Positions 11,372 through 32,620 of a stretch of 36,768 nucleotides of DNA are shown here, one piece after another. Made by a program: the position numbers and the translations under genes. Position 1 is the first letter of the stretch. The number at the start of each line of letters is the position of its first letter. The DNA is from Promethearchaeota archaeon (GTDB taxonomy: Archaea; Asgardarchaeota; Lokiarchaeia; Sigyniarchaeales; SOKP01). The stretch is from assembly GCA_048938445.1 (NCBI GenBank), contig JBHLME010000035.1, positions 1 to 36,768 on the forward strand, given 5' to 3'. The notes under the pieces are model-generated. The model was not told the origin of the DNA, did no database searches, and saw nothing but the letters and a program-made list of their open reading frames with translations.

Positions 11372-11758
11372 ATGTCAATATTAGGTATAGTGGGTTTACC
11401 ACATTTTTGGATGATGATAACTGGGATAATTTTATTAGCTATTTCCATCGTATCAGTAACCTTACATAAACCAAAAAAATGGTTCGAGATTCATAGAATA
11501 TTTGCTATGGTAGGGATCGTACTAACAATTATCGGAATTTTTGTCTTGACAAGGCTTATTATTGCGTTAGTTCATCAAATTATAGGTATTGTTGTATTAA
11601 TTTGGTTAATTGGTGAAATTATCGGCGGATTCGTTGCATATAAGAAGAAAGATCCAAAAATGCGTAAATTACATGTATTAACTGGTAGATTAGCATTTAT
11701 AACGGTTATTGTTGTTATTATCTTGGGTATTATAGGGATTTTAGCGATACCGATTTAA
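11372..11758 (+). CDS. Cytochrome b561-like 4-TM di-heme membrane protein
   Basis: Four TM helices, each with a His in b561 spacing: PHFWMM, WFEIHR, VHQIIG, LHVLTGR. Confidence 0.7.
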   Translation: MSILGIVGLPHFWMMITGIILLAISIVSVTLHKPKKWFEIHRIFAMVGIVLTIIGIFVLTRLIIALVHQIIGIVVLIWLIGEIIGGFVAYKKKDPKMRKLHVLTGRLAFITVIVVIILGIIGILAIPI

Positions 11759-14761: not shown

Positions 14762-15190
14762 TTAATTTAATATTAGGTATCTAAAATTCTTTACTTCTTT
14801 TATAGAATTTATTTCAACAACAATTTTTTGAAAATCTTCGAGTAAACCTTCAAAAATGAATGATATTATATTTCCTTCTTTACAGAAATATTGATGTTTG
14901 TTGACAATTTGACTTACATAATCATTTTCAATTCGATTGACTTTTTTTAAAATAGTTGTGTCATTTGGAATTACAACAACCATGCTTCCTGTAACATTCT
15001 TAGTAATTGGAAATGCCATAGTAGAGGAAGCTGAACTGACTTCAGAAGCGTCCATCGTAGACATCAGTCGAATTAATGCGTCTCTTATCAATTTTGACTT
15101 ATTTTCATATTGATTTTTTGAAACGAGTTTATTAATGAACGTTTTGAGACTCTCGTTAATCGAAATACTTATTATCGGAATTTTTACCAC
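14762..15190 (-). CDS. Ribbon-helix-helix regulator, NikR-like fold (RHH + ACT-like domain)
   Basis: IISISIN...YENKSKLIRDALI RHH signature followed by a beta-alpha C-terminal domain of NikR length; GTG start. Confidence 0.75.
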   Translation of the reverse strand: MVKIPIISISINESLKTFINKLVSKNQYENKSKLIRDALIRLMSTMDASEVSSASSTMAFPITKNVTGSMVVVIPNDTTILKKVNRIENDYVSQIVNKHQYFCKEGNIISFIFEGLLEDFQKIVVEINSIKEVKNFRYLILN

Positions 15191-15256: not shown

Positions 15257-17629
15257 TTATATTTTCAGAGAACGTGCTAAAACGTTTTTAAAATGCTCTA
15301 CATCATTAATGAGTTTATCTGCTTCTTCTTCACTGATATTCTCATCTTTTCCGTATTTATTTAAAGCAGTAAGCCAAAACTCAAGCCGACCTAAGACAGG
15401 ATCCTTATTTCCAAGCATTTTATTTAATCTTATATGGGTGTCATGAAGTTTATTTCGTATATTTTGAGCTTTCCACTTTAAAGCAGCATAATCTGAGACT
15501 TCTGCGAGATTCTGAGTTATTGCCATTACATCTATCGTCTTTTCTCTTTCATCTGATCGAATTTTTCTAATAATATTTATTTGTTCAAAAAGTAGTTCAA
15601 TTGCTTTAGCTAAAAATCCTGTTAATTGTCCAGGATTAGCACACCAAACCCTTACCTCTAAAGATTGGTTCTTTTCCGATACATAAATCCTTGTAATTAT
15701 TCTCCCGCCTGTTACTTTTGCTTCACTACAAAACCAAGCTTCTGCTTCATATGAATCGGTTGTATCGGTAGTTTCATGGCTTGTCACCATGCTCGTTTCG
15801 AAATTTTTAATAGAACGAATACCCGCTCTAAAAGCAAGACGAGGATCTAAATCTGCAATTAAAAATGCTCGTGCATCATTTGGAAGGGTTTGAATGGATA
15901 ATTGGCAATCTTCAATCGTGCTCAATGAAGTACATACTAAAGGACACTTGATTTGTACCTCTTTTTTTCGTATATTGATTGTACTCGATTCACCTCTTGC
16001 ATTTTTATATATAACAGTTCCTCCAAGATTAGATATACCACACTCATTTGGTTCTAGATAAAAATCAACTCCTCTCGAGTTTCCTTGTTCTATGACTGGG
16101 ATATTAATTAATGGGTCTTTAATTTTATAACTTGAAGGTACATCCAATATTACTTTAACACTATGAATTGCCATGTTCGTTTGATTACGGACTACAACTT
16201 TAAAATGAAGCTGACCTCCAATGAAATCATACTCTCTTACAACTTCTACTTTCCCTTTATCTTCTGATGCTGGAACTTTTTGGATTGCATCCTCTGGTAT
16301 CGGAGTTTCTGATGAGATAGAGTATGCAACAAAAAGTCTTTTATGCATGTCGATATATCCATCTATTTCCCCTTTTCCAATCAATTTCGCTAATAACTCT
16401 TCTATACTTGATTCTGTAACACCTAATCTATTAGAGAGATCTCTTAAAGGCATTGTTCTATAAGCTTTTGCAATCTCTTTAATTTTAATTTGGAGATATT
16501 TTTGAGTTGCAAATTCTCGTCTCTGTGTAAATATTCCCTTGATTGAACCTTTTTTAATTAGATTATGGAGACTCTTCCTTGCGAGTTCGACAGCGATTTT
16601 CAATGCAGTAGCTAATTTTGAGAGTTCAAACAATCCGCTTTGTTTTGCATACTCCTTTATTTCTTTATTAATTTGCGTCGAGGTGATTACTTGGTTTCCT
16701 TTATCGGCAAAGAATGCGCTTATTTCATTCATTCTCATAAGGTTTACACAAAATGATTTTACTTGTGCTACAGGTAAATTAAGATTTTTAGAGAGATCTG
16801 TTAATGAAATCCTTCCACTTTTATTTATGTCTGATTTAATAGTAGAAGTAATGTAACTTTGTGTATAATAAAAAGATTTATCTTGAGAAAATGAACCCTT
16901 TATTTGCATCTTACTTATGAGATTATAAATAACTTTAAGAGTTGTTTCTGTACTCATGTCTAACATTACTCCCAAATCCTGTACTTTTATATTCCCTTCA
17001 TTTTGAAACTTATCAAGGATTTGAGTTCTAATTTCATCTGAAATGTAATGAAACATCCCATTTTTCTGATCTATAATACCATAAATACGTTCTTCTTCAA
17101 TAAAATCATTTATTAATTTTATAAAATCCCGGGGAGAAATATTAAATGAGCTCTGAATGGTATCAAAACTCGTTACAGTACTTCTTTTAAGTAAATCTAA
17201 AAAGCATTTAGGGCAGATATCTTTACCTATTTTTTCCTTTAACCTCCTACTACATAATTTGAATCCCTTAATTAAATTATATCTCTGCCCTTCACGTACT
17301 AGTTTTTCTTTTGTTGGGAGAAATAAACCGGGTGTTTTCTCATATGAATTCCATCCACATTGAGGGTTTATACATTCAAAATAATATTGACCTGATGACA
17401 ATCGTTCTAATTTTAATAAAGATTTGCATTCTGGACAAGTACTATACTCAACAACCGTACATTTAAAATATTGCTCACTAGCTTTAGCTTTACTTACTTT
17501 AATTTCATGTTTTGGGCATGTCCATTCAGAAGTTGTTGTCATATGATTAATGCAAAAACTAGATTTACATCTTTCACAAGTAAATTCTATTTTTTCGGAC
17601 TCACAAAAAAGACATTTCATGTTATTCAC
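15257..17629 (-). CDS. Multidomain protein: Zn fingers + tandem PCI/winged-helix repeats + appendage-like domain
   Basis: N-terminal CxxC clusters (AN1-like CxxC-CxxC-CxxH and Zn ribbons); ~5 WH units, the last a clear PCI (LSNRLGV...IEELLAKLIGKGEIDGYID); Ig sandwich + platform from aa ~460; helical tail. Confidence 0.75.
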   Translation of the reverse strand: MNNMKCLFCESEKIEFTCERCKSSFCINHMTTTSEWTCPKHEIKVSKAKASEQYFKCTVVEYSTCPECKSLLKLERLSSGQYYFECINPQCGWNSYEKTPGLFLPTKEKLVREGQRYNLIKGFKLCSRRLKEKIGKDICPKCFLDLLKRSTVTSFDTIQSSFNISPRDFIKLINDFIEEERIYGIIDQKNGMFHYISDEIRTQILDKFQNEGNIKVQDLGVMLDMSTETTLKVIYNLISKMQIKGSFSQDKSFYYTQSYITSTIKSDINKSGRISLTDLSKNLNLPVAQVKSFCVNLMRMNEISAFFADKGNQVITSTQINKEIKEYAKQSGLFELSKLATALKIAVELARKSLHNLIKKGSIKGIFTQRREFATQKYLQIKIKEIAKAYRTMPLRDLSNRLGVTESSIEELLAKLIGKGEIDGYIDMHKRLFVAYSISSETPIPEDAIQKVPASEDKGKVEVVREYDFIGGQLHFKVVVRNQTNMAIHSVKVILDVPSSYKIKDPLINIPVIEQGNSRGVDFYLEPNECGISNLGGTVIYKNARGESSTINIRKKEVQIKCPLVCTSLSTIEDCQLSIQTLPNDARAFLIADLDPRLAFRAGIRSIKNFETSMVTSHETTDTTDSYEAEAWFCSEAKVTGGRIITRIYVSEKNQSLEVRVWCANPGQLTGFLAKAIELLFEQINIIRKIRSDEREKTIDVMAITQNLAEVSDYAALKWKAQNIRNKLHDTHIRLNKMLGNKDPVLGRLEFWLTALNKYGKDENISEEEADKLINDVEHFKNVLARSLKI

Positions 17630-21256: not shown

Positions 21257-21292
21257 CTTCTTCCTTTTATTTTCTGACTTCTCTATTATATA

Positions 21293-22573
21293 TCAACTCT
21301 CTTTAGTACTTTTTTTTGTATTCAACGAATACATCCCTATTCCCAATAATATTAATAAAAGAAATATTGTACTTACAAAATTATATGGAAAAAATGATTC
21401 AGTAAAACCATAAATTAAAATAAATATCAGATTGAGAAAATTTAAAACAAAAAATCCAGGAATGATATATCTTTTTGCTATATTAGAATTGTTTGGTAAA
21501 TTAAATATAGTAACGATTAATAAAGGAATAATAATCAATAAATGATGATCCCAAGAATCAAAATAGACTAATAGCATTATTGTAATCCCCAATAAATATG
21601 CATAAATAATAGAGTATTGTGTCACTTTTCGAAAAAAATAAATTAAAAATCCTATTCCTCCTATAACACATGCGACACTTGTGAATATTATCAATTGATT
21701 GAACGGAATTTGATAAAAAGAGAAAAAATTCGTTAAGAGTTTAGTAATGCTAAAAGAAAAATTCAATATAGTAGGATCTGATCCAGTCAAATTTGCATCA
21801 ATAAATCCTTCTAATAATGGAGGATATATTAAAAACAGGATTAAATTCAAAGATATAGGTAATATTATACCAATAATTCTTATCAAACTCTTCTTGATAT
21901 CATAAGTTAATTTTCTTTCTTTTAAATTATAATTTATAACAATCAAAAAAGGAATTAAAAAAATCGTTATAGGCTTTATTATTATACTTATACCCAAAAG
22001 AACACTTCCAATTAATTGCCATTTCAAGTCTTCGTATCTAAGAAATATATACAAAGAAATTAGAACTAAAATGACGACATAAATATTAATTTGGCCTAAT
22101 ACATAATTCGATCCTTGGGGAAGTCCTATTAAAAATAAACTAATATAAGTAATGATTTTAGCATCATTAATTTCATCATCTTTACTTCTTACAATAATGA
22201 TTATTTTATAAAGAATCACGCAGGTTATAATATTGAGAAACAAATTAAAAAGGTTAAATAAAACAAATGCAAATTCATAGTTTAAGAGTGAAAATGGAAT
22301 GAAGAATACTGCACATAAAGGAAAATACCTGAAGGGAAAATTATAATTTGCTTGATTATAAAGATCTGATGGATTGGTAATAAAGATTTCACCTACTTTA
22401 TAATAGACTTCAAAATCTACTTCAAATTTTAAAGCAAATAATATTATTGAACCAATAAAGTAAAAAACATGTATTATTACTGCAATTTGAAATATTCGAA
22501 ACTTCCCCAGTTCAAAAAACCTTGATACAATATTTTGAAGTCTCAGTTTAAGGTTCATTTGAAATAAAACCAA
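21293..22573 (-). CDS. Glycosyltransferase family 87-like membrane protein, paralog B
   Basis: DFEVYY, FRYFP, GQIN, IKP and SWDHH; collinear with 19271..20545. Confidence 0.85.
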   Translation of the reverse strand: MVLFQMNLKLRLQNIVSRFFELGKFRIFQIAVIIHVFYFIGSIILFALKFEVDFEVYYKVGEIFITNPSDLYNQANYNFPFRYFPLCAVFFIPFSLLNYEFAFVLFNLFNLFLNIITCVILYKIIIIVRSKDDEINDAKIITYISLFLIGLPQGSNYVLGQINIYVVILVLISLYIFLRYEDLKWQLIGSVLLGISIIIKPITIFLIPFLIVINYNLKERKLTYDIKKSLIRIIGIILPISLNLILFLIYPPLLEGFIDANLTGSDPTILNFSFSITKLLTNFFSFYQIPFNQLIIFTSVACVIGGIGFLIYFFRKVTQYSIIYAYLLGITIMLLVYFDSWDHHLLIIIPLLIVTIFNLPNNSNIAKRYIIPGFFVLNFLNLIFILIYGFTESFFPYNFVSTIFLLLILLGIGMYSLNTKKSTKES

Positions 22574-22697
22574 TTATGAAATTAATTTATATTGTTTAAT
22601 TAACTTTCAAAAAAATACTTTTTTGAATACATGGAACATGATTCGCATTCCATCTTTTCATTAATGTATTTTAAAGAATATAGCATAATATTTCTAT

Positions 22698-23795
22698 TCA
22701 TTTCTTCCTTCGAATTTTTATATCTTTTTCGAAAAATCCAGATTTTATTATATCTTTTTTTTCTTCAGTTAAATCAGTATAAAAATCTATTGAATTCAAA
22801 TTCTCTTCTTTATTATTATTAAACTTTCTAATGCGATTTAAAGTAAGATGAATAGAATATTTAGAGATATCACATCCTATCCATTTTCTTTTCAATCTTT
22901 CAGCAGTTAATAAAGTTGTCCCCGAGCCACAAAAGAAATCTGCGATTAAATCACCTTCATTACTTCCCAACTCGATAATTCTTTCAATTAATTCATGATG
23001 TTTTTGAGTAGGAAAGCCTGTCCATTCTTTTGAAGCAGGTTGCAAACATGGTATTCGCCAAACGTCATCTAATTTTTTATCATTTACGATACGATACATG
23101 ACATTTCCATTTTCATCTTTAGCATTCTTTAGAATACCATTTACATTTTCTCGTTTTAATTGTTTTCTTGGTTTTTCACGCGGAATTCTTAATTCATTAA
23201 ACGTATAATTATTTGTTTTCGAATATATTAAAATATCATCATGTGCTCTCGGGAGATTTTTTTTTCCTGCTGAATATTTATTATAATAATACCACACGAT
23301 ATTATTGATGAAATGGTTTTCACCGAAAACGTTGTCTAAAATCATTTTTACAGGATGACAAGCATGCCAATCTAAATGGACAAATAATAACCCTGTTTTT
23401 GTTAACAATTTCTTGAATAATATAAACCGTTCATATAACATCTGTAAATAAGTATCAAGATCTTTATCCCAATTATCTTCATATGCAACTGTTTCATAAT
23501 CTAAGTTTTCACCCTTAACTTGAATTTGATAATTAGTTCCAGAAAAGAATGGAGGATCAATATATATTAAATTTATTTTATCTTCAAAAGTATTTAATAA
23601 ATAATAGAGTACTTCTGCATTATCTCCCCAAAATAGTTTATTAGTCCAATTTTTAACACTTTTATTACCCTGACATTTACTAGGACTTGAATTAGAATAA
23701 AAATTTATTTGTTTGAATCGAGTTTCATGTTGTTTTTTTAATTCTTTAATATTGGGAGTAATATCATTTTTATTTCTCCATGCAATATCAACCAT
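22698..23795 (-). CDS. Beta-class amino (m6A/m4C) DNA methyltransferase, orphan
   Basis: Motif IV IYIDPPF precedes FPTQK and motif I DFFCGSGTT; resembles type III Mod-like enzymes. Confidence 0.9.
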   Translation of the reverse strand: MVDIAWRNKNDITPNIKELKKQHETRFKQINFYSNSSPSKCQGNKSVKNWTNKLFWGDNAEVLYYLLNTFEDKINLIYIDPPFFSGTNYQIQVKGENLDYETVAYEDNWDKDLDTYLQMLYERFILFKKLLTKTGLLFVHLDWHACHPVKMILDNVFGENHFINNIVWYYYNKYSAGKKNLPRAHDDILIYSKTNNYTFNELRIPREKPRKQLKRENVNGILKNAKDENGNVMYRIVNDKKLDDVWRIPCLQPASKEWTGFPTQKHHELIERIIELGSNEGDLIADFFCGSGTTLLTAERLKRKWIGCDISKYSIHLTLNRIRKFNNNKEENLNSIDFYTDLTEEKKDIIKSGFFEKDIKIRRKK

Positions 23796-26279: not shown

Positions 26280-27401
26280 TTGAATTTGAAAGGAATGAAA
26301 AAAATTCTCTTGGGTGGTGCTGGAGGCGTTGGTAAGACAACACTACTAAATCGTTTTCTTTCAAATAGATGGATACCCTCACCCATGACTATCGGGATTC
26401 AATTTTCTTCAAAAGTAGTAGAAGTAGAAGGCATGACCGAAAGGTTAATATTTTTTGATTTTGCGGGGCAGCGTAGATGGAGATTTTTTCAAGAATCTTT
26501 TTTTTCAGGAGCAGATGGTGCAATTTTATCTTTTGATTTTCAAAGATATATATCATTTGAAAACTTAGAGGAATGGGTACAACTTTTCAGGATAAATAAT
26601 CCAAATCTACCTATTTTATTAATTGGAACAAAAGCCGATTATGAAGATAGAGTTGTATCCAAGAATAACATAAAGGAATTCATGGAAAAATATGATATCT
26701 TTAATTTTATAGAAGTTTCATCATTAACAGGTGAAAATGTAAAAATAATATTTGAAAATTTAATTCGAAAAATTCTTGGTTTGGAGCTATTATCTGTTCC
26801 AGAAATTCCTGGTAGGATGACCTCGGGAAGACCACGCAGGAATAATAAAAATTCGATTTCAAATTACGCAATAAAGAAATATCAAATTAATGAATATATT
26901 TCATTACAATTGGACTGGAACATGACAAATATCTACATTAATGGGATTCATTTTAACCAATGCAAGTATCTTTTATTAGATATTCCATTAAGTGAAATTG
27001 AAAAATATGATGAGATTGATTCAATTGATAAAGCGGTAGAACTTTTGGACCATTCTCTTGAAACCCATTCTATAGAACGTTTTAAAATTGATCCTGAAAC
27101 GGAATTCTGGGGGCATTGCTCAAATCTTCAAGCATGGGTAGAAAATGACTATGATACAAGAATCATACACAGAAACTTAGCTTTTCCCTTATTAAAGAAA
27201 CTTTCTGAAATAGGAGATCTAATTGCTAAGAAAGTATTTAAAAATGAGATTGCTTTGAGGTTAGAGGAGAATTTTTCCTCAGTTACTCATTATCTCGTGG
27301 AAGAAGGATATTTAAAATTTTTTAATAAAGAAGAACTTGACCTATTATGTAAGAAAAACGATTTATTGAAAAAGCTGATAAAAAATAGGGTTTTACATTA
27401 A
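26280..27401 (+). CDS. Rab-like small GTPase fused to a Loki-type C-terminal domain
   Basis: G1 GAGGVGKTT, G2 MTIG, G3 DFAGQ, G4 TKAD, G5 VSSL; then a ~170-aa domain with FWGHCSNLQAW. Confidence 0.88.
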   Translation: MNLKGMKKILLGGAGGVGKTTLLNRFLSNRWIPSPMTIGIQFSSKVVEVEGMTERLIFFDFAGQRRWRFFQESFFSGADGAILSFDFQRYISFENLEEWVQLFRINNPNLPILLIGTKADYEDRVVSKNNIKEFMEKYDIFNFIEVSSLTGENVKIIFENLIRKILGLELLSVPEIPGRMTSGRPRRNNKNSISNYAIKKYQINEYISLQLDWNMTNIYINGIHFNQCKYLLLDIPLSEIEKYDEIDSIDKAVELLDHSLETHSIERFKIDPETEFWGHCSNLQAWVENDYDTRIIHRNLAFPLLKKLSEIGDLIAKKVFKNEIALRLEENFSSVTHYLVEEGYLKFFNKEELDLLCKKNDLLKKLIKNRVLH

Positions 27402-29233: not shown

Positions 29234-32200
29234 TTAACTCTGTTTATCTATTTTTTTCGAATTCTTCATTTCTAACATTCCTTCGATTATTTTCAGCTGC
29301 TCTTGGGTGTTAAATACAACAAGATCTTTTAGTATCTCATCTAATTCGTTTTTATCTAAATTCAGTTTATCTAATTTTCTTTTAATTTCATTTGGAATCG
29401 CGGTCATTTCTATATCGCCATGTTTCAATAATTCTTCTATTGGATTGCTTGAATTAATTAAATTATTAAAATTAATTTTCTCGTCTTCAATTTTTACCTT
29501 GTTTGACGACTCAATATCCATCGTGATATTGGAGTCACATATCCAACAGCTTTCTCCCCTCCTCATTAATGTAGATGCGCATTTCAAGCAATATTTTGCT
29601 TTACATTTAGGACATACATAATTAATTCCTTTTATTTCTCCTTTATGAATTACGCATTTATCCTCTTGCTTTATAATATCTATTTCCTTTTCCGTTTTTT
29701 CTAATTCCTTCTTTTTAAGGGCTTTTTCTTGGATTGTAACCTTCTCTTCTACTTTTTGCTTTTTCTTTTTTGAAAGGCTCTTAGGTGGCTTCGCCTTTTG
29801 AATGACCTTTGATTCCAATGGTTTGATGGGAGTGAGCATATCTGGAGTAATTTGTGGTTTTACCCTTTTTTCTTGTCGAGATTCTTCATCCTGCAAGGTT
29901 GACAACTCGCTTGTGAGAGGTACTTTCTGTTCCAATGGTTTAAAAGCACCTTCTTTTTTTTTTTTTTTACGTGAGATGGTCACGTAGCCTGTAGTGAGTG
30001 TAATACCAATCGTGCTTAAAATGATGATAATGATTATGATGTACCATGGAAATGGAGTGATTGGATTGACAGTTTCACTCATCAAAAAAGTCGATAATTC
30101 AGTGGTTGTGAATTCCACGTAATGATGTGTCGAATTTAACGAGAAATCTACATCCCGCCATAGGCCCAAATCGGAAACTCGATGAGAAACCCATAGATTC
30201 AAGGGATTGTGGATTTTCAAGGGATCGTAATAGAATCGAATGGTAACGCTCGAGAGGATTGAACTATCTTTAACCAAATTAGCACTATACAAGTCAATGA
30301 TATACGTGTACAAAGTGGACGTATCATATCCAGGATCGCTAATGATCGGAATCTCAGAAGAAGCGTTGCTAACGCGCAAGTATCCAATGGAATTCAGTTC
30401 AATTTCAATGTACATGCCATGCTCATCGATCATGTCCAAGATATTGAGGTTTGGTCTCAGACAAATGTATTCCCAATCGAGAGAGAAATACCGCTTGTCA
30501 GATTGAAAGATGAATCTGTTGGTCGTAGTTCCAAACACTTGAATCGAGTGCAAACCATTTCCCGTGGGCATCGGAATGGTCGTGTTGCCTTGAATCGTGA
30601 TGTTAGCAGCTCCATCCAAGGAATAACCCATCCAATCCAAGACCGTGCTATTTTCATAACTGAGCAACAAACCCTCGTTCATGTTATCTCCGATATTATA
30701 ATTTGGATCCCATGAATAGCTGATGGCATCAAAATACCCTTCCCCTGTTTCTGCACTTACAGGATTTAGTAATCTCAATCTATTAAAATTTGTCGCAGTT
30801 CTCCAGAAAGGTTCACCTGATAAGTATTGAACTCCGTTGACGTATACATTAAACGTGTCTGCGGCAAGCCCCATATAATTTCCGGAGCCGCATTCAAAAT
30901 CCACTCTCATGTGAAACCACGTTCCATCCGAATATAACCCTGGTGCGAATTCAATGTGAGAATTGTGTTCCAATTCAAATTTTCCATTATCATACCAATC
31001 AATTAAAATATAAATTGATTCTTGCCCCAAATCATTGAAGAGTTGAAATCCCAAACAGGCACCCGTGCCTCCAGGTTCGTAACGCCACCACCATTCTACA
31101 GTCCCACTTGTTTGACTGACTTCAAAATAATTTGAGATCATGCACCTCTGTCCCACTACGGCACCGGCATCAATAAACTGGATGACTTGTTCATGTCCTC
31201 CATGACTTGCTTTTACCGTGGTTGCACAATTTGTGCCATCTTGATCTATCCACCCGATTGGAAAACTCCCGTCTAGGTCATTTTCAAATCCATAGGTAGC
31301 AGGATAATACCCGCTCATTGGTGCCGTGTAAGTTCTATTTTCGGGTGTAATAATTCTAATTGGACTACCAGTCCAATTAGAATCAATAAAACGCATGATG
31401 AAAGCGTCAAAATTGCTTGAACTGGACTTACGGATATATCCCGTAATATAGATATTTTCTGATGCATCTACCGCAATATCCCTTGGCATATCAGATCCTC
31501 CATTATCCCAGGTATTATTCCACAGTAAGTTTCCAGAATTATTATATTTCAAAATGAAATTATCAAAATCTTCCCCTCCTGGAATGAATCGCTCCCCTGT
31601 AACATATATATTTCTAAAATTGTCTAATGATAAACCAAGACCCCTATCACTATCAGTATCACCCCACGTATCATCCCATTGTACAATACCAGAACTATTA
31701 TATTTAACAATAAAAACATCTTGATTTCCTGCACCATAACTAGAAGTAATTCCCACAATATAGAGATTTCCTAATTCATCTAATGCAATATCATAACCAC
31801 TATCACTATTACTTCCACCCCAGGTGAGATCCCATTGAAAAATTCCCAAATTATTATATTTTACAATAAAAGCGTCCCAATCACCCGCACCAAAGCTTCT
31901 GGTATCTCCCGTAATATATATATTTCCAAAGTCATCCGAATCAATACGTTTTCCAATTTCACTATTAATACCACCCCATGTTTTATTCCATAGAAAATTA
32001 CTCGAATTGTCAAATTTCACAATAAAAACATCATTTTCTCCTGCACCAAAGCTTTGAGTACGGCCAGTAATAAATACATTTCCCAAATTATCTGAAATAA
32101 TATCATAAGCTTCGTCTTGACTAACACCTCCCCAAGTGATTTCCCATTGAAAATTACCAGAATTGTCATATTTTACAATAAAAGCATCCCAACTGCCTGC

Positions 32201-32620
32201 ACCAAAGCTAGATGTTTCTCCTGTAATATAGACGTTTCCTAATTGATCTAGTGCAATACCTCTTCCAGTTTCAACACTACTCCCTCCCCAAGTGGTATTC
32301 CATAGCAAATTTCCGGAATTATCATATTTTGCAGTGAAAACATCATAATTTCCAGCTCCAAAACTTGTAGTATCTCCAGTGATGTAAATATTTCCGGAAT
32401 TATCCAATGTAATAGCTCGGGAATAATCTTCATTGTCACCACCCCAAGTGATATTTAAATCTGAAACATACTGATTTATCTGCGCTGTACTTACATCAAT
32501 AAATCGATTTGAAGAATTTAAAGCAGCAGAAGATATATTCAAATTTAATGAACCAAGGATAACACAGCAGAAAATCCCTACTAATAAAAGAGATTTTATT
32601 TTTACTCGGGTACTTTTCAC
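29234..32620 (-). CDS. Single-pass surface protein: signal peptide, 7 SBBP-like propeller blades, Ig/ConA-like domains, TM, cytoplasmic RING-like Zn finger
   Basis: Seven 52-aa repeats (TWGG...D..GNIYITG.T.SFGAG..D.FI.KY); TM PWYIIIIIIILSTIGITL followed by RKKKKK; CVIH-CPKC-CLKC-CWIC. Confidence 0.85.
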   Translation of the reverse strand: MKSTRVKIKSLLLVGIFCCVILGSLNLNISSAALNSSNRFIDVSTAQINQYVSDLNITWGGDNEDYSRAITLDNSGNIYITGDTTSFGAGNYDVFTAKYDNSGNLLWNTTWGGSSVETGRGIALDQLGNVYITGETSSFGAGSWDAFIVKYDNSGNFQWEITWGGVSQDEAYDIISDNLGNVFITGRTQSFGAGENDVFIVKFDNSSNFLWNKTWGGINSEIGKRIDSDDFGNIYITGDTRSFGAGDWDAFIVKYNNLGIFQWDLTWGGSNSDSGYDIALDELGNLYIVGITSSYGAGNQDVFIVKYNSSGIVQWDDTWGDTDSDRGLGLSLDNFRNIYVTGERFIPGGEDFDNFILKYNNSGNLLWNNTWDNGGSDMPRDIAVDASENIYITGYIRKSSSSNFDAFIMRFIDSNWTGSPIRIITPENRTYTAPMSGYYPATYGFENDLDGSFPIGWIDQDGTNCATTVKASHGGHEQVIQFIDAGAVVGQRCMISNYFEVSQTSGTVEWWWRYEPGGTGACLGFQLFNDLGQESIYILIDWYDNGKFELEHNSHIEFAPGLYSDGTWFHMRVDFECGSGNYMGLAADTFNVYVNGVQYLSGEPFWRTATNFNRLRLLNPVSAETGEGYFDAISYSWDPNYNIGDNMNEGLLLSYENSTVLDWMGYSLDGAANITIQGNTTIPMPTGNGLHSIQVFGTTTNRFIFQSDKRYFSLDWEYICLRPNLNILDMIDEHGMYIEIELNSIGYLRVSNASSEIPIISDPGYDTSTLYTYIIDLYSANLVKDSSILSSVTIRFYYDPLKIHNPLNLWVSHRVSDLGLWRDVDFSLNSTHHYVEFTTTELSTFLMSETVNPITPFPWYIIIIIIILSTIGITLTTGYVTISRKKKKKEGAFKPLEQKVPLTSELSTLQDEESRQEKRVKPQITPDMLTPIKPLESKVIQKAKPPKSLSKKKKQKVEEKVTIQEKALKKKELEKTEKEIDIIKQEDKCVIHKGEIKGINYVCPKCKAKYCLKCASTLMRRGESCWICDSNITMDIESSNKVKIEDEKINFNNLINSSNPIEELLKHGDIEMTAIPNEIKRKLDKLNLDKNELDEILKDLVVFNTQEQLKIIEGMLEMKNSKKIDKQS
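29954..29968 (-). repeat. A15 homopolymer inside the CDS (encodes KKKKK)
   Basis: 15 consecutive T on the + strand. Confidence 0.9.

Follow-up and report, generated by a model that had tools for sequence, protein, structure and literature searches.

What does an archaeal protein do that joins, in one chain, zinc fingers, winged helices of the kind found in a human ligase and the ear of a vesicle coat? The question is raised by an open reading frame (ORF) in a 36,768-nt stretch of DNA (contig JBHLME010000035.1 of assembly GCA_048938445.1, a lokiarchaeial Promethearchaeota archaeon; hereafter the window), which is AT-rich (~30% G+C) and contains genes of archaeal and Asgard type, among them FttA, TBP and a Ras-family GTPase. 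The architecture of the encoded protein is established: a Cys/His-rich module, five winged helices (WH), an appendage of the adaptin/COPI type and a Vps28 C-terminal bundle. An initial annotation made from the letters alone had described one polypeptide combining proteostasis-type with coat-type modules, a fair description, and the four-part domain architecture bears it out. Read from the GTG at 17629, the ORF (15257..17629, minus strand) has 790 codons; because 13 aligned orthologues and an identical database protein of 787 aa begin at its fourth codon (MKC...), the real start is probably the ATG at 17620, three codons inside the listed ORF.

The N-terminal half was modelled with AlphaFold2 (residues 4–450, 33-row alignment, pLDDT 92.0) and contains exactly five winged helices of 58–62 residues, each with the order H-E-H-H-E-E, where the initial annotation had counted about five. 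By sequence as well as by fold, the closest solved relative of this five-WH rod is the human DDRGK1-UFL1 chimera 8b9x. It is the top sequence match in the PDB (E 2.9e-9 for the single sequence with phmmer, 2.5e-15 with a 13-sequence profile), and the alignment is colinear across the fusion joint of the chimera; DDRGK1 chain 8c0d_B is aligned at E 4.2e-7. In the phmmer alignment to 8b9x, GIIDQKNGMFHYIS is placed against GVIDDR-GKFIYIT of human DDRGK1 and the stretch YYTQSYI...GRISLTDL against human UFL1, and thus the two resemblances noted beforehand, of the end of the first unit to DDRGK1 and of the middle units to the UFL1 repeats, both hold. Foldseek places DDRGK1-UFL1 or UFL1 entries at all of ranks 1–5 (E 2.7e-14 to 3e-11), with 8b9x at 2.7e-14 (TM 0.70 on the target, rmsd 3.9) and, at ranks 3–5, UFL1 chains from three 60S-bound complexes; the next array, that of SelB (2.3e-6, rmsd 14.6), follows at a distance of more than five orders of magnitude, so that the array is indeed far closer to DDRGK1/UFL1 than to generic winged helix-turn-helix (wHTH) arrays. 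A search of the ESM Atlas with residues 134–440 gave no usable match.

The Pfam results point the same way. E3_UFM1_ligase (PF09743) was matched at 1.9e-21 (77.4 bits against a cut-off of 23.2), with residues 217–435 lying on profile positions 13–234, and DDRGK (PF09756) at 3.1e-14 (53.5 bits against 27.8) over residues 139–219; both, together with PCI, the top family (4.6e-30, in five stretches), and VPS28, score above their Pfam cut-offs. For the last unit, WH5, superposition on PCI winged helices gave rmsd 0.8–1.9 Å with CSN4, proteasome-lid subunits and eIF3c (0.8–1.2 Å for CSN4 and the lid subunits), in agreement with its earlier assignment to PCI; the further suggestion that the AN1 and PCI parts associate with the proteasome remains unsupported. 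The five units share merely 10–18 identical residues in pairwise comparison and are therefore old repeats. Cumulatively, our findings indicate homology of the rod, in colinear order, with DDRGK1(207–305)+UFL1(27–249), which in eukaryotes form the scaffold of the UFM1 E3 ligase.

The C-terminal half was modelled separately (residues 441–790, 66-row alignment, pLDDT 92.5), and its top Foldseek matches are appendages: COPI 9qpq_H (3e-10), beta2-adaptin 1e42 (8.2e-10), alpha-adaptin 1w80 (4.5e-9), BBS9 (9.4e-9) and gamma-COP 1r4x (1e-8). Each of these matches spans ~240 columns, that is, sandwich plus platform, and since both subdomains are present in model and Foldseek matches alike, the appendage-like C-terminal domain predicted for this protein is confirmed. 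The order of β-sandwich and then platform is shared with the ears of adaptins and COPI (AP-2 alpha, beta2, gamma-COP, beta-COP) and with the GAE-platform-helical modules of BBS9, and the archaeal ear comes after a flexible hinge, as an adaptin ear does. However, sequence identity to the adaptin, COPI and BBSome modules is only 8–12%, and the ear is borne on a WH rod, not on a HEAT/ARM trunk or a β-propeller: at the place where a coat adaptor has its hinge to the trunk, the archaeal chain has a 23-residue linker to the Zn/WH arm.

The domain list of the initial annotation was incomplete in one respect, as the last ~95 residues, which it overlooked, form a Vps28 C-terminal bundle, and this bundle is the link to ESCRT. 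Besides the fold, the Vps28 call rests on the Pfam score (PF03997, 4.1e-6; 27.1–28.5 bits against a cut-off of 24.5) and on a profile match of the tail to 2j9w at E 9.9e-4. What the archaeal tail has in common with Vps28 of ESCRT-I is the C-terminal four-helix bundle; the match covers profile positions 87–186 of 188, and the N-terminal core of Vps28, which binds Vps23, is missing. A candidate link of this region to the selenocysteine system (NCBIfam Sel_Asgard on residues 593–782, 42.8 bits against a cut-off of 132) was dropped as remote helical similarity. The true Sel_Asgard member of the genome ('putative selenocysteine system protein', 219 bits; locus L003, contig C157, 1420–2103, plus strand) lies directly after an ORF that was read, on inspection alone, as SepSecS-like, and BLASTP between it and the fused protein found no similarity (E 3.8). 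In its passages on the surroundings of Sec genes, PMC11227280 mentions merely a hypothetical protein.

At the other end of the chain, residues 1–139 form a Cys-rich module that is mostly β-structure and coil in the AlphaFold2 model and has a net charge of +8. Residues 6–142 hold 16 Cys and His residues (C6, C9, C18, C21, C26, H29, C38, H41, C57, C65, C68, C86, C91, C126, C139 and C142), all of them invariant or at least 90% conserved among the 13 orthologues, down to 38% identity, and the module may hold up to four zinc sites. The first eight ligands look like a cross-braced unit for two zinc ions. A zinc ribbon (C65/68/86/91) appears to be nested inside an outer site (C57/126/139/142) that adjoins the first helix of WH1; the spacing of the ligands fits the nested fingers proposed earlier, with the pairing, and hence the nesting itself, read from that spacing. 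Zinc-ribbon families of Pfam gave weak matches at residues 61–92, and the PDB matches in the zinc region, 1x4v and 1wfe, have E values of 0.5–0.6. The label 'AN1-like' for the first unit is weakly supported: zf-AN1 (PF01428) was matched by 7 of 10 N-terminal fragments of orthologues (E 0.0064–3.4), all under the cut-off of 27.9 bits and the best at 17.0 bits. The first six ligands of this unit agree with the AN1 pattern, and the last two differ.

Conservation is unevenly distributed over these modules. In comparison with the orthologues that have diverged most (three sequences), 50–70% identity is kept in the appendage and the long helix, 37–50% in WH4–WH5, 19–40% in WH1–WH3 and none in the 23-residue linker; the appendage is the most conserved part of the protein. 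From this profile, and from the disorder of the linker in both models, it follows that the protein consists of two rigid modules on one flexible 23-residue hinge, with the ear as the constrained hub. Across the family, identity is 64–72%, similar to that of Vps22 (66–72%).

The family was surveyed in 201 genomes sampled from the phylum, with matches accepted at E ≤ 1e-10. It was found in 36 of the 40 genomes of the window's family and in all three of its order; the other 157 sampled genomes gave matches in three, all partial, and full-length orthologues were found in the window's own order only. Matches to PF09743 elsewhere in the phylum are much weaker and stand in other architectures. Four such UFL1-related Asgard proteins (PF09743 4.6e-12 to 2e-8) were tried as an aid to rooting the family and set aside, having no DDRGK match and different architectures; one of them, searched against the PDB, gave no match. 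The ear module, for its part, recurs in many other architectures, where it is combined with Zn-ribbon, TPR, Ig, FG-GAP or WD40 parts. In another Asgard family, a 1266-aa ORF (L089, genome G039, contig C90) matches residues 144–678, that is, the WH array plus the appendage, at 28% identity, within a larger and different architecture.

Judging from homology, we hypothesize that the protein serves as an adaptor linked to ESCRT and analogous to ESCRT-0/I, rather than as a UFM1 ligase, and we put the probability of this reading at roughly 0.5. The Vps28-C bundle would dock on ESCRT-II, whose genes lie elsewhere in the genome, the appendage would serve as a hub that collects partners with short motifs, and the faster-evolving Zn/WH arm would select the target, perhaps the ribosome, the target of UFL1/DDRGK1, or another large assembly. 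The gene is the only one in the genome that matches PF03997, and likewise the only one that matches PF09743. Genes for Snf7, Vps4, a Vps25-like and a Vps22-like protein are clustered on contig C109 of the same genome, and for Lokiarchaeota an interaction of Vps28 and/or Vps23 with Vps22 has been reported from yeast two-hybrid experiments (PMC9192718). Canonical Vps28 and Vps23 were not detected by Pfam in the genome, and three small ORFs near the cluster that have no Pfam match (159, 89 and 121 aa; locus L094, 2148–2627, 4501–4770 and 5304–5669) are therefore candidates for the missing ESCRT-I parts. A second Ras-family small GTPase is also encoded near that cluster (L094, 3015–3554, plus strand).

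Several observations weaken this reading. The gene stands outside the ESCRT cluster (contig C127, as against C109), the docking of its tail on ESCRT-II is predicted from homology, and its neighbours in the window are kept in neither of two order-level loci and none is conserved beyond the family. Each WH unit taken alone is matched best by PCI (for WH1, PCI at 3e-8 and DDRGK at 3.6e-6, at profile positions 102–157), and the UFL1 match of WH2 by itself is off register, with four of the five units having a UFL1 or DDRGK match at the colinear place; the assignment to DDRGK1/UFL1 therefore rests on the whole array and its geometry, not on single units. Ufm1 and UFC1 gave no Pfam match in the genome, which is 96.5% complete, with models that may both be blind to Asgard forms. 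The missing Ufm1 match is weak evidence against a ligase, because the model found nothing in any of the 201 Asgard genomes although Ufm1 homologues are reported from nine Asgard clades in a 2026 paper (PMC12962969); the UFC1 control, too, was silent in every genome.

The ESCRT-adaptor reading is partly compatible with the best-surviving alternative, in which the protein is a ribosome-associated factor whose WH rod and basic Zn module bind the large ribosomal subunit in the manner of UFL1/DDRGK1 on the 60S, independently of UFM1, and whose C-terminal module recruits ESCRT or further partners to ribosomes that are stalled or bound to membranes. The UFL1 chains at Foldseek ranks 3–5 come from just such 60S-bound complexes, WH4 (+7) and the Zn module are basic, and the family is conserved as housekeeping genes are, at a level close to that of Vps22. 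However, the parts of UFL1/DDRGK1 with the most extensive ribosome contact, reportedly the UFL1 C-terminal domain and the long helix of DDRGK1 according to the 2024 cryo-EM papers, are not represented in the archaeal protein, and no ribosomal or translation gene is linked to it in the window; we regard a ribosome factor as unlikely.

More directly, the homology to the DDRGK1-UFL1 array, which is specific, could mean that the protein functions as an E3 scaffold of the UFM1 type: UFL1 and DDRGK1 combined in one chain, which would bring a charged E2 and a Ufm1-like modifier of Asgard archaea to a substrate, with appendage and Vps28 tail as mere targeting devices. The reported Asgard homologues of Ufm1 (PMC12962969) would fit this, as would the statement that UFL1 and DDRGK1 originate in Asgard archaea (PMC10183829). 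The comparison with the human complex (8b9x; 8qfc and 8ohd on the 60S), in which the position of the DDRGK motif and the UFL1 repeats align, argues otherwise. The crystallised 8b9x chimera joins DDRGK1 207–305 to UFL1 27–200; this construct lacks UFL1 residues 1–26, and with them the N-terminal helix essential for UFC1 binding and ligation in human UFL1, and neither binds UFC1 nor supports ligation (PMC10702826). At the corresponding joint the archaeal chain has a six-residue deletion relative to 8b9x, not an insertion, and WH1 runs straight into WH2 with no extra helix in the model. The rod is thus colinear with the inactive 'deltaN' DDRGK1-UFL1 fusion and has no UFC1-binding helix at the joint.

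The other parts of the human ligase are replaced as well. After the WH array, where UFL1 has its C-terminal domain, the archaeal protein has appendage and Vps28-C; before it, where DDRGK1 has a membrane anchor and a long helix, it has Zn fingers, and no hydrophobic segment is visible in the sequence; the context of CDK5RAP3 is missing too. In the account of PMC10183829, moreover, UFC1 and UFM1 are seen in eukaryotes only and a UFM1-independent role is suggested, and the genome itself, as said, has no Ufm1 or UFC1 match by models that may miss Asgard forms. Given these differences, an active UFM1-type ligase seems to us quite improbable.

Membership of a PCI-type assembly (proteasome lid, CSN or eIF3), joined through the winged helix of WH5, would account for PCI as the top Pfam family and for the close superpositions of WH5, but it is very doubtful, as no helical-repeat solenoid precedes any WH unit, each of which follows another WH unit or the Zn module, and as the WH of human DDRGK1 is itself also annotated as PCI (PMC10702826), so that a PCI match does not discriminate. 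A DNA-binding transcription regulator with Zn fingers and five wHTH domains, suggested by JGI database names (Lrp/ArsR family), for instance 'DNA-binding Lrp family transcriptional regulator', and by weak matches to many HTH families (FeoC best at 5e-9; HTH_AsnC, DeoR and IclR at 1e-3 to 1e-4), is just as hard to credit, because protein-scaffold winged helices (PCI, DDRGK, UFL1) match better by many orders of magnitude and because half of the protein is an appendage and Vps28-C module; WH1 and WH2, moreover, are slightly acidic.

An ESCRT-linked function for this kind of protein has been proposed before, and the initial annotation erred in ranking the locus as its best candidate for an undescribed system. 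According to the preprint of Liu et al. (2020), many Asgard proteins fuse Vps28 or Vps23 with adaptin and COPI C-terminal domains and E3 UFM1-protein ligase 1, and are predicted to act in membrane remodelling that depends on ubiquitin. Makarova et al. (2024; mBio, and preprint) treat proteins with Vps28-C and adaptin appendage, together with PCI/HTH domains, as a class, for which they make the same functional proposal as we do here: direct binding of ESCRT-II, as analogues of ESCRT-0. Their supplementary file 9 lists the fusion family gene by gene, with the full-length genes under asCOG cog.003836; two shorter Helarchaeota entries stand beside those of Lokiarchaeota, and cog.003822 has two rows only, a 318-nt fragment with the fusion description and an 'Uncharacterized protein'. 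The published entries give no function past the flag 'ESCRT/ubiquitin system component'. The protein belongs to cog.003836 by its Zn domains, its E3 UFM1-protein ligase 1 domain and its orthology to a listed member: the Loki_b31 gene at 21262..23631 is the orthologue in our locus L011 (contig 21262–23628), 70% identical over residues 4–790. Four-part architecture, length (genes of ~2370 nt) and lineage are the same, with no difference of substance. The architecture is thus already known, and the window adds an orthologue, not a discovery.

Table 1. Parts of the fused gene, with residue ranges and positions in the window.
Feature	Residues	Position	Strand	Basis or remark
Whole gene		15257..17620	-	787 codons from ATG, plus stop; orthologues and identical 787-aa database protein begin at MKC
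First Zn unit	6-41	17507..17614	-	Eight ligands, C-x2-C-x8-C-x2-C-x4-C-x2-H-x8-C-x2-H; cross-brace pattern, weakly AN1-like
Second Zn region	57-142	17204..17461	-	Putative ribbon C65 C68 C86 C91 within outer site C57 C126 C139 C142
WH1, DDRGK1-type, PCI-like	140-197	17039..17212	-	Model and 8b9x alignment; holds DQKNG, counterpart of the DDRGK motif
WH2, one continuous winged helix	198-256	16862..17038	-	Colinear alignment across the 8b9x chimera joint
WH3, UFL1-type	257-316	16682..16861	-	Model; alone matches E3_UFM1_ligase positions 56-97, E 0.0019
WH4, UFL1-type, net charge +7	317-375	16505..16681	-	Alone matches E3_UFM1_ligase positions 115-164 at 0.0026, DDRGK at 1.9e-4
WH5, PCI-type, best-conserved WH unit	376-437	16319..16504	-	
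Variable linker/hinge	438-460	16250..16318	-	pLDDT <50 in both models; 0 of 23 columns invariant
Appendage beta-sandwich (GAE/Ig-like)	461-562	15944..16249	-	Model and Foldseek; 34% of columns invariant
Appendage platform (TBP-like), alpha/beta	563-665	15635..15943	-	
Helical tail	666-790	15260..15634	-	51-residue helix, then four-helix bundle; residues 696-788 = Vps28 C-terminal domain

Within the family, the surroundings of the gene are well kept: among 80 loci, a 142-aa gene resembling ribbon-helix-helix (RHH) proteins was found in 75, parvulin in 69, DsbD_2 in 75 and GT87 in 68. This synteny reflects kinship, not an operon, because neither order-level locus keeps any neighbour of the window. 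The 142-aa ORF, which in the window lies directly downstream (14762–15190, minus strand) and has an RHH-like N-terminus (RHH_1, E 0.013, under the cut-off), was for the same reason rejected as an operon partner, being absent from both order-level loci and on the opposite strand in L088. The flanks also bear on the labels of some loci. A contig titled 'Candidatus Nanopelagicaceae bacterium' (L023, DATKTW010000042.1) has an orthologue of 68% identity between flanks of the Lokiarchaeial kind (142-aa gene, parvulin, DsbD_2 and GT87) and is probably mis-binned or mislabelled; several other loci with ~68% identity bear the titles Hod-, Hermod-, Thor- or Odinarchaeota.

Elsewhere in the window, the Ras-family small GTPase (26280–27401, plus strand; 373 aa) has a C-terminal extension of ~200 residues without a Pfam match. 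A 1128-aa ORF in the most G+C-rich stretch (29234–32620, minus strand; G+C 0.39) has SBBP β-propeller repeats and a weak match to ARF7EP_C (E 2.3e-4), and a 128-aa ORF (11372–11758, plus strand) matches the 'eukaryotic cytochrome b561' family at E 2.2e-6 (28.4 bits against a cut-off of 23).

To the descriptions in print we add the restriction of full-length orthologues to one order, the finding that the neighbours are not conserved beyond the family, the appendage as the most conserved part and the colinearity of the rod with the deltaN fusion. One further point, which we did not find in the published literature searched, concerns the single chain itself. In the human complex DDRGK1 and UFL1 each contribute one half of the equivalent of WH2 (PMC10702826), whereas here one chain replaces the two and WH2 is continuous, and because of this difference an ancient fission is suggested: the Lokiarchaeial chain would preserve the state before it, and DDRGK1 and UFL1 would be the halves of one ancestral scaffold that was cut inside WH2. 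After the cut, the UFL1 N-terminus may have gained the UFC1-binding helix and DDRGK1 its membrane anchor, and the ancestral scaffold may have functioned independently of UFM1, as the arm with which an adaptor linked to ESCRT and coats selected its targets. We offer this scenario tentatively and consider it unlikely, but if it is true, the UFM1 ligase would have been co-opted from the machinery of membrane trafficking. A single conserved chain unites parts of three eukaryotic systems (UFM1-ligase scaffold, coat-adaptor ear and ESCRT-I), a point in print since 2020–2024, and the protein hints at how Asgard parts were put together into the machinery of eukaryotes.

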